From positions 31,682,001 to 31,746,000 of the forward strand of contig OX597840.1 in NCBI GenBank assembly GCA_951406725.2: a stretch of DNA of 64,000 bases, in the 5' to 3' direction. Shown here in pieces: positions 6,708 through 51,050 of this stretch. The notes under the pieces were generated by a model that was given only the letters and a program-made list of their open reading frames with translations, ran no database searches and had not been told where the DNA came from. The translations under genes and the position numbers were made by a program. Source of the stretch: Octopus vulgaris (Eukaryota). The stretch's first letter is position 1. The number at the start of each line of letters is the position of its first letter.

Positions 6708-6844
6708 ATATATATATATACATATATACATACATACATTTATACATATACATATATACATATATATATATATTTATATATATATATATATATATATATA
6801 TGTTACGAAAGAAGGTTTGAAAATGCAATTTAAAAGATGTTTAT

Positions 6845-6889
6845 TTACTTAACCGGTTTCACTCTTTGGTAAAAGATTGTCAAAAGTAA
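6845..6889 (-). ncRNA. Type I hammerhead ribozyme H1 (U3:A8 core), inverted copy
   Basis: Reverse complement of 7251-7295. Confidence 0.75.
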
Positions 6890-7250
6890 CATTGAATATT
6901 ATGGGTTCAAAAAAGTTTTTTACATAATTGTCACATTGAATATTATGAATTCAAAACTGTTTTTTATACATAATTGTCACATTACATGTATAAATATAGT
7001 GTTTGGTAACAGAGATATGTTAAGGGCATAAAGAAGTTCAATAGTGTGATGAGAATATTTGGAAAAATTGGCAGAAAAGAATAATTCTCATCACACTATT
7101 GAACTTCTTTATGCCCTTAACATATCTCTGTTACCAAACACTATATTTATACATGTAATGTCACAATTATGTATAAAAAAACATTTTTGAATTCATAATA
7201 TTCAATGTGACAATTATGTAAAAAACTTTTTGAACCCATAATATTCAATG

Positions 7251-7295
7251 TTACTTTTGACAATCTTTTACCAAAGAGTGAAACCGGTTAAGTAA
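7251..7295 (+). ncRNA. Type I hammerhead ribozyme H1 (U3:A8 core)
   Basis: UUACUU-UUGACAA-U CUUUU ACCA AAGAG U-GAAA-CCGG-UU-AAGUAA. Stem I is UUACUU/AAGUAA, stem III is palindromic ACCGGU, and the site is GUU. Confidence 0.75.
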
Positions 7296-7421
7296 ATAAA
7301 CATCTTTTAAATTGCATTTTCAAACCTTCTTTCGTATATAATTCCACTCGTGCGATACCCCACAACTCAACTTTTTATATATATATATATATATATATAT
7401 ATATATATATATATACATATA

Positions 7422-7768
7422 TACGACGGACTTCTTTCAGTTTCCATCTACCAAATCCACTCGCAAGGCATTGGTCGGCCCGGGGCTATAGCAGAAGACA
7501 CTTGCCCAAGATGCCACGCAGTGGGATGAACCCGGAACCATGTGGTTGGTTAGCAAGCTACTTACCACACAGCCACTCCTGCGCCCATTTATATATACAC
7601 ATACATACATTCGATGGGCTTCTTTCAGTTTCCATCTACCAAATCCACTCACAAGGCATTGGTCGGCCCGGGGCTATAGCAGAAGACACTTGCCCAAGAT
7701 GCCACGCAGTGGGATGAACCCGGAACCATGTGGTTGGTTAGCAAGCTACTTACCACAGAGCCACTCCT
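7422..7768 (-). mobile_element. Two tandem SINE-C heads
   Basis: Two ~165-bp copies sharing the variant GTGGGATGAACCC. Confidence 0.85.
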
Positions 7769-8039
7769 TTTTTCCTACTGAACCAAATTTCGATTATCTT
7801 ATGTTAGAAAGTAGCTTGCTACTGGTTGGTCATAATGCAAAGAACCGAATTAAGATTGAACTAAACCTGAATTAGTGGCAAAGCGTCAAATTGGCCGCGA
7901 GTGAGTAAAAGTTGACCTGAAGAATATTATTCACACACTACCGTTTGAGAATGATTTCTGTATATACTTGCACGAACGTACGTGAATATGTTAAGTGCGT
8001 GTGAAAACCCTGTAAAGGAAATGACATGGTTATATACGT

Positions 8040-47378: not shown

Positions 47379-47808
47379 TACTCTTTTACTCTTCTACTCT
47401 TTTACTTGTTTCAGTCAGTTGACAGCGGCCATGCTGGAGCACCGCCTTTAATCGAGCAACTCGACCCCGGGACTTATTCTTTTGTAAGCCCAGTACTTAT
47501 TCTATCGGTCTCTTTTGCCGAACCGCTAACTAACAGGAACATAAACACACCAGCATCGGTTGTCAAGCAATGCTAGGGGGCCAAACACAGACACACAAAC
47601 ACACACACACACACACATATATATATATATATATACATATATACGACAGGCTTCTTTCAGTTTCCATCTACCAAATCCACTCACAAGGCTTTGGTCGGCC
47701 CGAGGCTATAGTAGAAGACACTTGCCCAAGATTCCACGCAGTGGGACTGAACCCTGAACCATGTGGTTAGTAAACAAGCTACTTACCACACAGCCACTCC
47801 TGCGCCTA
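47379..47808 (-). mobile_element. SINE-C full copy
   Basis: Family consensus. Confidence 0.92.
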
Positions 47809-48030
47809 TATTACATTTTTTAAAGAAATGGAGTTCTATGCATGAGTTGCTATAAACCGGAAGTCAACATTCCGGTACACATAAAACGGATTGGGGTTAG
47901 TGTCAGGCGTGATTTGCTATATACCGGAAGCCAACGTTCTGTGCGTAGACACACTGACAAAGAAGATGAAGTATTAGACGTGATTTGTCACGAGCGAGGA
48001 GTCAACATTCCCTGTGTAAATATAATAAAA

Positions 48031-48992
48031 CTAGCTGTATCGCCCGGGGTTGCTCGGGTTTGTTTCGACCCTTTAGAATTGGAATTTTTGAAAAATAAAA
48101 GTTTTGTATTATGTAGCTTGTTATTCTCTTTAAGTGAACATTCTTCTGGTTGAAATACACCGAAAAATGGCAACACAATAGTAAAAAAATCGTAAAAATA
48201 GGGATTTTCATAGCAAAAAAGCACCTTTTTGATGTAAATAATTTTTAGTGTTAACATGGTCCGATTTGAATTTTTTCTTCTACGGAATGAAGAGCAACCC
48301 TTCTTCTTTCATACTCTCAATTTTGGTCAACTTGTTGCGCCGCAGGGTCTCGGAGGAGATAGTGTTAGTTGAAGGCTACCAAACCTGCCATACACAGACA
48401 ACTTCAGCTTTATATAGAGAGAGATTTTTCTGGTTGAAAAACACCGAAAAATGGCGACTCAGCAGTCAAAATATTGTAAAAAATAGGGATTTTCATAGAA
48501 AAAAAGCACCTTGTTGATGTAAATAATTTTTGGTCTTAACATGCTCCGATTTGAATTTTATCTTCTACGGAACGAAGAGCAAGCCTTCTTCTATCATACT
48601 CTCAAATTTGGTGAACTTGCATCACAGGGTCTCGGAGGAGATAGTGTTAGTTGAAGGCTACCAACACCTGCCATACACAGACAACTTCAGCTTTATATAT
48701 AGAGAGAGATTTTTCTGGTTGAAAAACACCGAAAAATGGCGACTCAGCAGTCAAAATATTGTAAAAAATAGGGATTTTCATAGAAAAAAAGCACCTTGTT
48801 GATGTAAATAATTTTTGGTCTTAACATGCTCCGATTTGAATTTTATCTTCTACGGAACGAAGAGCAAGCCTTCTTCTATCATACTCTCAATTTTGGTGAA
48901 CTTGCACCACAGGGTCTCGGAGGAGATAGTGTTAGTTGAAGGCTACCAACACCTGCAATACACAGGCAACTTCAGCTTTATATATAGAGAGA
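48031..48992 (-). mobile_element. Non-autonomous Helitron with a tandemly triplicated 5' part (~286-bp unit)
   Basis: Minus strand starts A|TCTCTCTATATATAAAGCTG and ends CCCGAGCAACCCCGGG..CTAG|T. Confidence 0.82.
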
Positions 48993-49051
48993 TGAAGTGT
49001 TCAGCATTATTGCTGACGAGCCAAAGATCACTGTTCAATATTTTCACATAT

Positions 49052-49240
49052 AAGGCGAAGAGCTGGCAAAAGGCTTAGTGGCATTTCATCTGTCTTTACC
49101 CTTTAAGTTCAAATTCGACCGAGGTCGACTTTACTTTCCATCCTTTCGGGATCGATAAAATAAGTACCTGTTGAGTACAGAGATCAATGCTATCGACTTA
49201 ACCTCTTCCTGGCCTTGTGCCAAACTTTGAAACCAATACT
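49052..49240 (+). mobile_element. Diverged SINE-M
   Basis: GTCGACTTTACTTTCCATCCTTTCGGGATCGATAAAATAAGTACC. Confidence 0.75.
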
Positions 49241-49279
49241 TGCGTATATCAAGAACAAAAGAAGAAAACACATCGTGAA

Positions 49280-51050
49280 ATATATTTGCCATTTAAATAT
49301 GGCTAACCCCTAAGGGTGGATGCTACTGTAGTTTGTAGCCCCAGGAGGACACTTCCTCCAGCTTGCTTTAGACACACTTTCTGTGTAGCAAACTACAGCC
49401 AGCTGGAGGAGGTGTCTTCCTGGGGCTACAAACTACAGTAGCATCCACTCTTAGGGGTTAGCCATATTTAAATGGCAAATATACTTCTCGATGTGTTGCA
49501 GCTACTGTTTATAACTCTACGATACTGGAAAAGGGATAAGTATTTTCAGAGGGAACCTACTTTTCATCGACAACTGTGATTGTCACACGCCGATGACGGG
49601 TCAATAACCAGAAACTCGAATCCGTGTGTATCATAAGTCCCTTTTGCAAATACTGATAGGGCACAGAAAGTGTGTCTAAAGCCAGCTGGAGGAGGTGTCC
49701 TCCTGGGGCTACAAACTACAGTAGCATCCACCCTTAGGGGGTTAGCCATATTTAAATGGCAAATATACTTGTCGATGTGTTGCAGCTACTGTTTATAACT
49801 CGCTCTATCCGTGTGTATCATAAGTTGAAAACGGGAAGGATGGCTTCCTTTGCAAATACTGATAGGTCACAGAAAGTGTGTCTAAAGCCAGCTGGAGGTG
49901 GTGTCCTCCTGGGGCTACAAGCTACAGTAGCATCCACCCTTAGGGGTTAGCCATATTTAAATGGCAAATATACTTCTCGATGTGTTGCAGCTACTGTTTA
50001 TAACTCGCTCTATCCGTGTGTATCATAAGTTGAAAACGGGAAGGATGGCTTCCCTTTGCAAATACTGATAGGTCACAGAAAGTGTGTCTAAAGCCAGCTG
50101 GAGGAGGTGTCCTCCTGGGGCTACAAACTACAGTAGCATCCACCCTTAGGGGGTTAGCCATATTTAAATGGCAAATATACTTGTCGATGTGTTGCAGCTA
50201 CTGTTTATAACTCGCTCTATCCGTGTGTATCATAAGTTGAAAACGGGAAGGATGGCTTCCCTTTGCAAATACTGATAGGTCACAGAAAGTGTGTCTAAAG
50301 CCAGCTGGAGGTGGTGTCCTCCTGGGGCTACAAGCTACAGTAGCATCCACCCTTAGGGGTTAGCCATATTTAAATGGCAAATATACTTGTCGATGTGTTG
50401 CAGCTACTGTTTATAACTCGCTCTATCCGTGTGTATCATAAGTTGAAAACGGGAAGGATGGCTTCCCTTTGCAAATACTGATAGGTCACAGAAAGTGTGT
50501 CTAAAGCCAGCTGGAGGTGGTGTCCTCCTGGGGCTACAAACTACAGTAGCATCCACCCTTAGGGGTTAGCCATATTTAAATGGCAAATATACTTCTCGAT
50601 GTGTTGCAGCTACTGTTTATAACTCGCTCTATCCGTGTGTATCATAAGTTGAAAACGGGAAGGATGGCTTCCCTTTGCAAATACTGATAGGTCACAGAAA
50701 GTGTGTCTAAAGCCAGCTGGAGGTGGTGTCCTCCTGGGGCTACAAACTACAGTAGCATCCACCCTTAGGGGTTAGCCATATTTAAATGGCAAATATACTT
50801 GTCGATGTGTTGCAGCTACTGTTTATAACTCGCTCTATCCGTGTGTATCATAAGTTGAAAACGGGAAGGATGGCTTCCCTTTGCAAATACTGATAGGTCA
50901 CAGAAAGTGTGTCTAAAGCCAGCTGGAGGTGGTGTCCTCCTGGGGCTACAAACTACAATAGCATCCACCCTTAGGGGGTTAGCCATATTTAAATGGCAAA
51001 TATACGTCACGATGTGTTGCAGCTACTGTTTATAACTCGCTCTGAGATTT
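49280..51050 (+). repeat. H5-family derived array: short inverted piece, one variant hammerhead (49584-49628), then six 205-207-bp tandem units
   Basis: ATCCGTGTGTATCATAAG occurs at 49807, 50012, 50219, 50425, 50631 and 50837. Confidence 0.92.
49584..49628 (+). ncRNA. Hammerhead H5 variant (CCGAUGA core, imperfect stem III)
   Basis: CACACG-CCGAUGA-CGGGU CAAUA ACCA-GAAA-CUCGAA-UC-CGUGUG. Confidence 0.6.

Follow-up and report, generated by a model that had tools for sequence, protein, structure and literature searches.

Hammerhead ribozyme motifs in a 64,000-nt stretch of the Octopus vulgaris genome (hereafter the window) very probably mark independent insertions of Penelope-like element (PLE)-type sequences, in which families A and F are clipped ends of protein-coding elements and families B-E are retrozymes, likely mobilised in trans and apparently primed by a dimeric enzyme. 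All families display PLE hallmarks, namely (TA)n flanks, partial tandem copies, an inverted 5′-truncated arm, two fixed 3′ ends and a tail, and the common architecture noted in an earlier sequence-only reading of this DNA is a PLE-type insertion signature. The two ends of an insertion are almost always one short and one tailed (long) 3′ end, a pairing that probably reflects the way in which the enzyme initiates copying.

A descriptor scan of the window (C3-G8 or U3-A8 core, stems I-III and a UH cleavage site) recovered 9 of the 11 motifs that the sequence-only reading had listed as well-formed type I hammerheads: 7257+ and 6883- (family A), 11595+ (B), 14742+ and 14038- (C), 15950+, 15685- and 15323- (D) and 27754+ (E). 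No motif was found in any of 20 shuffled windows. All 11 sites are motif-like, but 33229 and 49584 fail the strict scan, with U4C cores CCGACGA and CCGATGA, respectively. An Rfam search of the window gave no matches at the gathering score, and a strict scan limited to CUGANGA cores, now superseded by the wider descriptor, gave one motif because U3-A8 and bulge variants were absent from it. The hammerheads of the window are real as minimal type I sequence motifs; site-specific cleavage at them is predicted, with 5′ ends at the site as a weak footprint. Since a single ribozyme recurs in inverted and tandem arms, the 11 motifs amount to seven insertions in six families, which are mutually dissimilar by blastn (best E 0.078 among nine queries), in line with the at least six families without common primary sequence reported earlier. 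The self-complementary stem III is likewise real in the minimal type I motifs, but it is decayed in the B copy of the window (AUAAUUGU from ACAAUUGU) and its palindrome is broken at 49584.

Judged by sequence, families A and F are 5′-truncated 3′ ends of protein-coding PLEs and not retrozymes; both continue into PLE open reading frames (ORFs), and their earlier description as non-coding units was wrong. Family A is a two-armed, 5′-truncated insertion of an autonomous Neptune-type PLE in (TA)n at 6804-7376, with a left arm (6804-7084, minus strand) that has the short end and a right arm (7084-7376, plus strand) with a 40-nt tail. Its hammerheads lie at 6845-6889 (minus; U3-A8 core, U.U at the base of stem II, stem III ACCGGU) and 7251-7295 (plus; predicted cleavage after 7289). 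The 3′ end matches loci L181-L184, where it follows intact reverse transcriptase (RT) and GIY-YIG frames; intact frames of this element type measure 776-876 aa, those upstream of the A end 846-876 aa, as a single ORF with RT (PF00078) and C-terminal GIY-YIG (PF01541) domains both over cut-off. The 81 scored matches (95-100% identity) lie mostly within long open frames. The frames upstream of the A end have a CX4CxxC linker, within the CX2-5CxxC that defines the Neptune clade, and the two GIY-YIG cysteines of the CCHH motif. Family F (33098-33300) is a two-armed insertion of only the last stretch of the 3′ end of a Hydra-type PLE, its left arm (minus) with the long end and its right arm (plus) with the short end and the U4C hammerhead at 33229-33266. 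It is collinear with a C-terminal Hydra-type endonuclease (EN) at L311-L313 that is free of internal CCHH cysteines, as in the Hydra clade, and we saw no intact full F frame. Both clade labels are based on motifs and not on an RT tree.

Families B-E consist of non-coding, circularly permuted tandem units of 353-490 bp, each of which contains a single type I hammerhead; their longest ATG frames are 25-47 aa, their arms reach 5.5 units, and first-look searches gave 1,000-2,700 genomic candidates per family, 40 of which were scored in each. Family B is an older copy of one ~490-bp unit (11308-11797, plus; 81-96% to other copies) with a long stem II in its hammerhead (11588-11666; predicted cleavage after 11659), and it lies outside (TA)n, an exception to the (TA)n flanks that otherwise hold across families. 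The 455-bp unit of family C spans 13869-15037 in a left arm with the short end (13869-14357, minus; hammerhead 13964-14047) and a right arm with the long end (14360-15037, plus; hammerhead 14733-14816, predicted cleavage after 14807), and its stem III keeps self-complementarity through length changes among variants. Family E (353-bp unit) is represented by a single plus-strand arm of 1.5 units at 27433-27959 with the short end (hammerhead 27748-27792, predicted cleavage after 27786), by a two-armed insertion without a ribozyme at 46721-47072, and by a variant at 49267-51052 in which a short inverted arm and the degenerate hammerhead at 49584-49628 (82% to 27748) precede a 206-bp satellite. The satellite has about 6.8 copies, in which the core of the ribozyme is missing, and its repeat begins anew at the predicted cleavage site; three family E 5′ ends in the window fall at that site, including those of the single arm and of the left arm at 46721.

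Family D (362-bp unit, 15118-16216) comprises a left arm of 2.2 units with the short end (15118-15900, minus), hammerheads at 15288-15329 (U3-A8 core, stem III ACGCGU) and 15650-15691, and a right arm with a 60-nt tail (15899-16216, plus), with a hammerhead at 15944-15985 whose 40-nt centre has 745 exact genomic copies. Covariation of stems I-III is visible here: in five distinct, related sequences 96.9% of stem cells are paired, and double changes occur in 4 of 13 pairs, spread over all three stems, and in none when the alignment is slid. Position 7 of the core is free to vary; a count of D core variation (3/1128) was set aside because loci had been picked for an exact ribozyme. Greater conservation of the core than of its flanks holds in B (6/281 versus 720/11673, p 0.003) but is not significant across copies of E (p 0.23) or C (p 0.77). 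D 5′ ends cluster at the predicted cleavage site (11/103, p 0.006), and an equal cluster at u221-229 is unconnected with it. Predicted circular monomers fold strongly for D (z -6.7), E (z -5.0) and B (z -3.2) and unremarkably for C (z -1.45). D copies show no RNA-editing signature, with A>G 22 and T>C 18 against a predominance of G>A 79 and C>T 60. Four contig sets contain D sequence, and one 392-nt contig on D in run X8 (362 + 30; run type guessed, no control) has the length expected of a cyclic contig if words were 31 long, as a tandem array would also give, and was left out of the argument.

Blastn of B-E against 109 PLE-related loci, and tblastn of three PLE proteins against 100 B-E loci, found no collinear link to an autonomous partner. 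The sole D match among the PLE-related loci (L239) lies upstream of the EN and in the opposite orientation. We read B-E as non-coding tandem retrozymes whose mobilisation likely depends on a PLE RT/GIY-YIG protein that acts in trans. The reported Penelope GIY-YIG remnants near 16437 and 18900 were confirmed at 16349-16713 (plus; broken by stops and frame changes) and 18936-19091 (minus; E 1.6e-6) as old, decayed Hydra-type sequences, their ENs without internal CCHH cysteines, and neither has a sequence link to B-E. Two hammerheads had been overlooked: the 3′ end of another element, family G (13632-13826, minus), has a degenerate core (CCGCAGA) and a further fragment at 22578-22653, and a decayed hammerhead, H (18500-18585, minus), lies in the 3′ region of the 18936-19091 remnant and has relatives that retain a CUGAYGA...GAAA core.

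Short and long 3′ ends are paired in 100 of 106 two-armed insertions: 52 of 58 in the first set (the remaining six being long+long, and the short+long assignments at L059 and L065 resting on internal positions), all nine family F loci, and all 39 of an independent set of new D loci. Short+short pairs were never seen. Across 12 subfamily sites, the two opposite arms of an insertion carry the same allele in 589 of 596 comparisons, against an agreement of 61% between loci, and minority alleles are common to both arms within C and E insertions. Such sharing would also be expected had subfamilies been active one after another. Most arms read through the predicted cleavage site. A search for a shared fold around the two start sites found none in five families (z -1.1 to +0.55).

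End pairing, allele sharing and read-through together fit priming by a dimeric RT/EN at two sites on uncleaved or circular RNA. Such an enzyme would cut both strands of a (TA)n tract. One DNA end would prime at the short start site, the other at the long site, which lies 40-120 nt further 3′, both on RNA of one source. Both cDNAs would pass through the ribozyme site, whether the template was an uncleaved multimer or a ligated circle, terminate at scattered positions and be joined head to head at a microhomology of a few bases. The palindromic stem III is predicted to let the ribozyme cleave in dimeric form, which would release unit-length RNA for B-E. A strict form, in which the enzyme directs each end of one cut to a start site of its own on a single ribozyme-made RNA, probably a circle, and each insertion is a double rolling-circle copy, is one that we entertain only tentatively. 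It is possible, if doubtful, that the templates of B-E were instead linear multimers, transcribed from tandem master loci and left uncleaved, with no circle and with ribozymes as barely active passengers. Read-through in most arms, the spread of F and G subfamilies despite a U4C core, the E fragments and 206-bp satellite without a ribozyme, and the reported indifference of lizard PLE insertion in vitro to hammerhead mutants (PMC11167929) would suit passengers, whereas the compensatory changes in D, the conserved B core, the C palindrome that survives length changes, the strong predicted circular folds and the three E 5′ ends at the cleavage site argue for function, as does the finding of no alleles specific to terminal versus upstream passes beyond alignment noise.

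A fold-back copy of the first cDNA, or an assembly error, in place of a second priming on RNA would account for allele identity between arms, but we regard it as very unlikely: neither arm contains the other at L012, L023 and L028, and the longer arm can be either one. The architecture recurs at more than 100 dispersed loci, each with a junction of its own, and a systematic assembly artefact is thereby excluded. Equally unlikely is the original proposal that all six families are non-autonomous retrozymes at unusual local density. B-E fit its first part, but A and F run on into PLE ORFs. As to density, the window holds 9 strict motifs (five insertions), about 3.5 times the insertions per base of 36 arbitrary regions (9 motifs, eight insertions, in 360 kb). 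A further 40 kb of adjacent sequence contains 2 motifs, the genomic DNA examined has at least 20 clusters of motifs, and the (TA)n content of the window is ordinary (4.1% versus 3.8%). Density is therefore raised only modestly, compatible with a genome at about one strict motif per 40 kb, and the octopus genome may hold tens of thousands of unannotated ribozyme motifs.

The mechanism of PLE integration and the role of PLE hammerheads are described as open questions (PMC11167929, PMC8557442). Short, young and abundant families offer many complete insertions for their study, and the near-absolute short+long rule and ribozyme-site read-through constrain any model of PLE integration; if the double rolling-circle reading is true, family D, which is young and has a unit of 362 nt, would make a compact test substrate. 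The general class was rightly taken as known: PLE hammerheads, non-LTR retrozymes including their PLE origin, inverted arms, tails and TA targeting are already in print (PMC4209133, PMC7229834, PMC8557442). We found no description of such cephalopod families in the literature, and they add mollusc retrozymes with full PLE signatures that support PLE mobilisation outside vertebrates.

PLE pseudo-LTR hammerheads, as presented by Cervera and de la Pena (2014, PMC4209133), likewise have a minimal core with a U3-A8 variant, an additional base following A9 and a palindromic stem III. They too occur as opposite-strand pairs spaced by 100-700 bp, in many families within one genome and mostly in truncated PLEs. 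Here the sequences and host differ, position 10.1-11.1 is often U.U or A-U rather than G-C, and F and G often carry U4C cores. Animal non-LTR retrozymes (Cervera and de la Pena 2020, PMC7229834; Li, Clavereau, Pollet 2026, 10.64898/2026.07.22.740005) have, in these accounts, the same non-coding tandem units (350-390 bp in mussel) with one type I hammerhead, a predicted self-paired circle and PLE co-occurrence. B-E, known here from genomic DNA, differ in forming dispersed short arrays (1-5 units), in carrying minimal ribozymes of PLE type and the complete set of PLE insertion hallmarks, and in having no sequence link to a PLE terminus among the 109 PLE-related loci. The 2026 preprint did not include molluscs and reports cleavage of only one of nine predicted dimers. 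The lizard PLE studied in vitro (PAc Poseidon; Frangieh et al. 2024, PMC11167929) is described as alike in two internal RT start sites that bracket the tail, cutting of both strands, a predicted dimer and use of uncleaved RNA, with ribozyme cleavage dispensable; neither strand is reported to favour one of its start sites, whereas octopus genomic pairs imply a different site for each end of one event. Neptune and Hydra clade PLEs (Craig et al. 2021, PMC8557442) are alike in C-terminal GIY-YIG, (TA)n targeting and an inverted 5′-truncated arm, and the linker and GIY-YIG cysteines described there are present in A and absent from F; their tails are given as 30-40 nt, "often only at one end", whereas octopus tails are 40-118 nt and the pairing of tailed with untailed ends is quantified here as nearly absolute. 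That pairing, allele sharing between arms and read-through of the cleavage site are the quantitative addition to the published class.

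Repeats of six hammerhead-bearing families lie in the window: A (6804-7376), B (11308-11797), C (13869-15037), D (15118-16216), E (27433-27959, 46721-47072 and 49267-51052) and F (33098-33300). The sequence-only reading counted about 11 well-formed type I hammerheads in at least six unrelated families; the family count stands, as the claimed motifs trace to 7 insertions of A-F, which are mutually unalignable. A descriptor scan of the window recovered 9 of the 11 motifs (0 in 20 shuffled windows), the two that failed, at 33229 and 49584, both having C at core position 4, and an Rfam search of the window gave no hammerhead match. 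Two decayed hammerhead families had been overlooked, G (13632-13826) and H (18500-18585), the latter adjoining, from behind, an endonuclease remnant at 18936-19091. The U4C core (CCGAYGA) occurs in three unrelated families, F (33229-33266), an E variant (49584-49628) and G (13632-13826), and in many dispersed F and G copies (genomic loci L121-L140, L201, L207, L210 and L251-L280).

Families B-E are non-coding, tandem, circularly permuted units (D 362, C 455, E 353 and B about 490 bp) with arms reaching 5.5 units and no ATG frame >47 aa. First-look searches of the 2.8-Gb genome gave 1307 (D), 1023 (C), 2704 (E) and 2290 (B) candidates, 40 scored per family. For D, the central 40 nt of the ribozyme recur without mismatch at 745 places, against 0 for the reversed sequence used as a control. 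Circular folding was unusual relative to shuffles for D, E and B (z -6.7, -5.0 and -3.2), with C not unusual (z -1.45). A shallow search of B-E against Penelope-like element (PLE) termini, a check proposed earlier, found no link. In a 206-bp satellite derived from family E (49809-51052), each unit begins at the predicted cleavage site, stops close to the long end and lacks the ribozyme core. Family D sequence is also present in sequencing runs (among X1-X20) of four organisms.

Describing every family as a non-autonomous, non-coding retroelement was wrong for A and F, which are ends of protein-coding elements, by motif-based clade labels of Neptune type and Hydra type, respectively. Family A matches frequently form inverted pairs spaced 3-5 kb apart, with reverse transcriptase (RT) and GIY-YIG endonuclease (EN) frames between or before the ends in 2/10 such regions examined. 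A 533-aa frame beside A ends matches PF00078 and PF01541 above cut-offs. Used as a query against the genome, this frame gave 31,020 candidates; the 81 that were scored all had 95-100% identity, and many of them lay within frames 776-876 aa long. In all four copies examined the A end lies downstream of the intact frame, beyond a ~2 kb microsatellite-rich 3' region. The protein has a CX4CxxC linker and two cysteines within GIY-YIG, described as Neptune features (PMC8557442). For family F, the ribozyme is collinear with an upstream C-terminal endonuclease in 3/5 long loci examined, none of which holds an intact full frame, and this endonuclease lacks the internal cysteines, as in Hydra. Both GIY-YIG remnants reported among the units are present and are classed as old Hydra-type copies. 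A diverged fragment at 40090-40205 is similar to the F long end. Elsewhere, two young Neptune-type families (L181-L184, L227, L232) retain numerous intact frames, of 776-876 aa and 781 aa, and have long 3' regions filled with microsatellites; at L241 (position about 2049, EN strand) a sequence resembling a hammerhead, whose core pair is A3-U8, lies behind a Neptune-type endonuclease in both arms; and frames of 1120 and 601 aa next to an A end (L145:377-5542) are presumably Helitron-like Rep/helicase.

In every family the 3' end falls at one of two fixed positions, giving a short end or a tail-bearing long end; the two lie 40 nt apart in A, 46 in E, 60 in D, about 68 in F and 110-118 in C. Two-armed insertions, whose arms are inverted relative to each other, nearly always combine one of each. 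With duplicate loci removed, 52/58 classified insertions were short+long, 6 long+long and none short+short, with 9 more unclassified; two of the short+long calls, both family E, rely on internal positions. Family F was short+long in 9/9 (28 loci examined), as were 39/39 among 60 further D loci from the exact-pattern list (the remainder being 5 unclassified, 15 single-armed and 1 complex), giving 100/106 overall; three of the six exceptions have one end outside (TA)n. Junction overlap between arms is mostly 2-6 bases. Either arm may be the longer and some pairs are non-nested, so RNA was the template for both arms. Long arms mostly run through the predicted cleavage site; arm 5' ends are enriched at the predicted D cleavage site (11/103 in 16 nt, p 0.006) and again at unit positions u221-229. 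Within the window, the predicted cleavage site is also where two E arms, as well as the 206-bp satellite, begin.

At 12 D subfamily sites, alleles agreed at 589/596 between opposite arms and 709/717 between tandem passes, vs. 61% between different loci, and C and E insertions likewise share alleles between arms. We suggest that each RT/EN subunit serves one DNA end and starts at one of the two sites, the template being RNA of one source in the form of a multimer that is not cleaved or of a ligated circle. The data are compatible with one RNA and with two, and with a circle and with a multimer. Subfamilies active in sequence would also give such allele sharing. For a lizard PLE, both strands are reported to be cut, RT to begin at two internal sites flanking the tail, a dimer is predicted, and insertion persists in ribozyme mutants (PMC11167929).

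The proposed check of stem covariation was borne out in D, whose subfamilies (78-99% identical; 5 distinct sequences) show double changes in 4/13 pairs, distributed over all three stems (I-III), with no double change once partners were slid; D core position 7 is A, C or U. Stem III of C stays self-complementary despite length and sequence changes. Core conservation was found in B, where minor alleles are scarcer in the core than in the rest (6/281 vs. 720/11673, p 0.003), with no significant difference in E and C. Stem III palindromes are predicted to pair with each other at -6 to -17 kcal/mol in duplexes, with next to no hairpin, matching what would be expected of dimer ribozymes. Most F and G copies seen carry the U4C core, the F searches themselves having been seeded with a U4C copy, and this spread suggests that cleavage may be dispensable in F and G.

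The density singled out earlier is only modestly raised. In 36 arbitrary 10-kb regions the strict scan found 9 motifs, from 8 insertions, and 0-1 in shuffled sequence, and the window has 9 motifs in 5 insertions; by our own arithmetic from those regions, ~1.4 insertions are expected per window and five have P about 0.015, so that hundreds of windows would match. Four neighbouring regions held 2 motifs in 40 kb, 20 motif clusters lie in 1.45 Mb of examined genomic DNA, and rough extrapolation gives some 65,000 motifs genome-wide. The window also contains a direct duplication at 12180-13630, about 710 bp long and made up of microsatellite and unique DNA (reverse fragment near 22690-23020); tandem arrays at 48140-48992, 24085-24887, 33386-34692 and 52400-53286 (periods 285, 184, 442 and 296), mostly of SINE-like repeats, in none of which a hammerhead was found; and a short stretch at 5900-6060 resembling what we take to be an LTR-retrotransposon pol remnant.

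A published repeat annotation for Octopus vulgaris counts 31 Penelope-like families with recent activity; its main text contains neither 'hammerhead' nor 'ribozyme', and its supplements and repeat library may hold these families (PMC13282606). Literature searches, with poor coverage of subscription papers, found no description of cephalopod hammerhead or retrozyme families and no quantified rule for tail or inverted ends. Strict end pairing is a useful, testable constraint on the open PLE mechanism. The observation itself is real and ordinary in kind: minimal PLE hammerheads, with the U3-A8 variant, a palindromic stem III and pairing of motifs on opposite strands (PMC4209133), and mollusc retrozymes with circles (PMC7229834) have been described, a study treating retrozymes as PLE derivatives covers 35 species, no mollusc among them, with 1/9 dimers cleaving (10.64898/2026.07.22.740005), and the octopus families fall in these known PLE and retrozyme classes.
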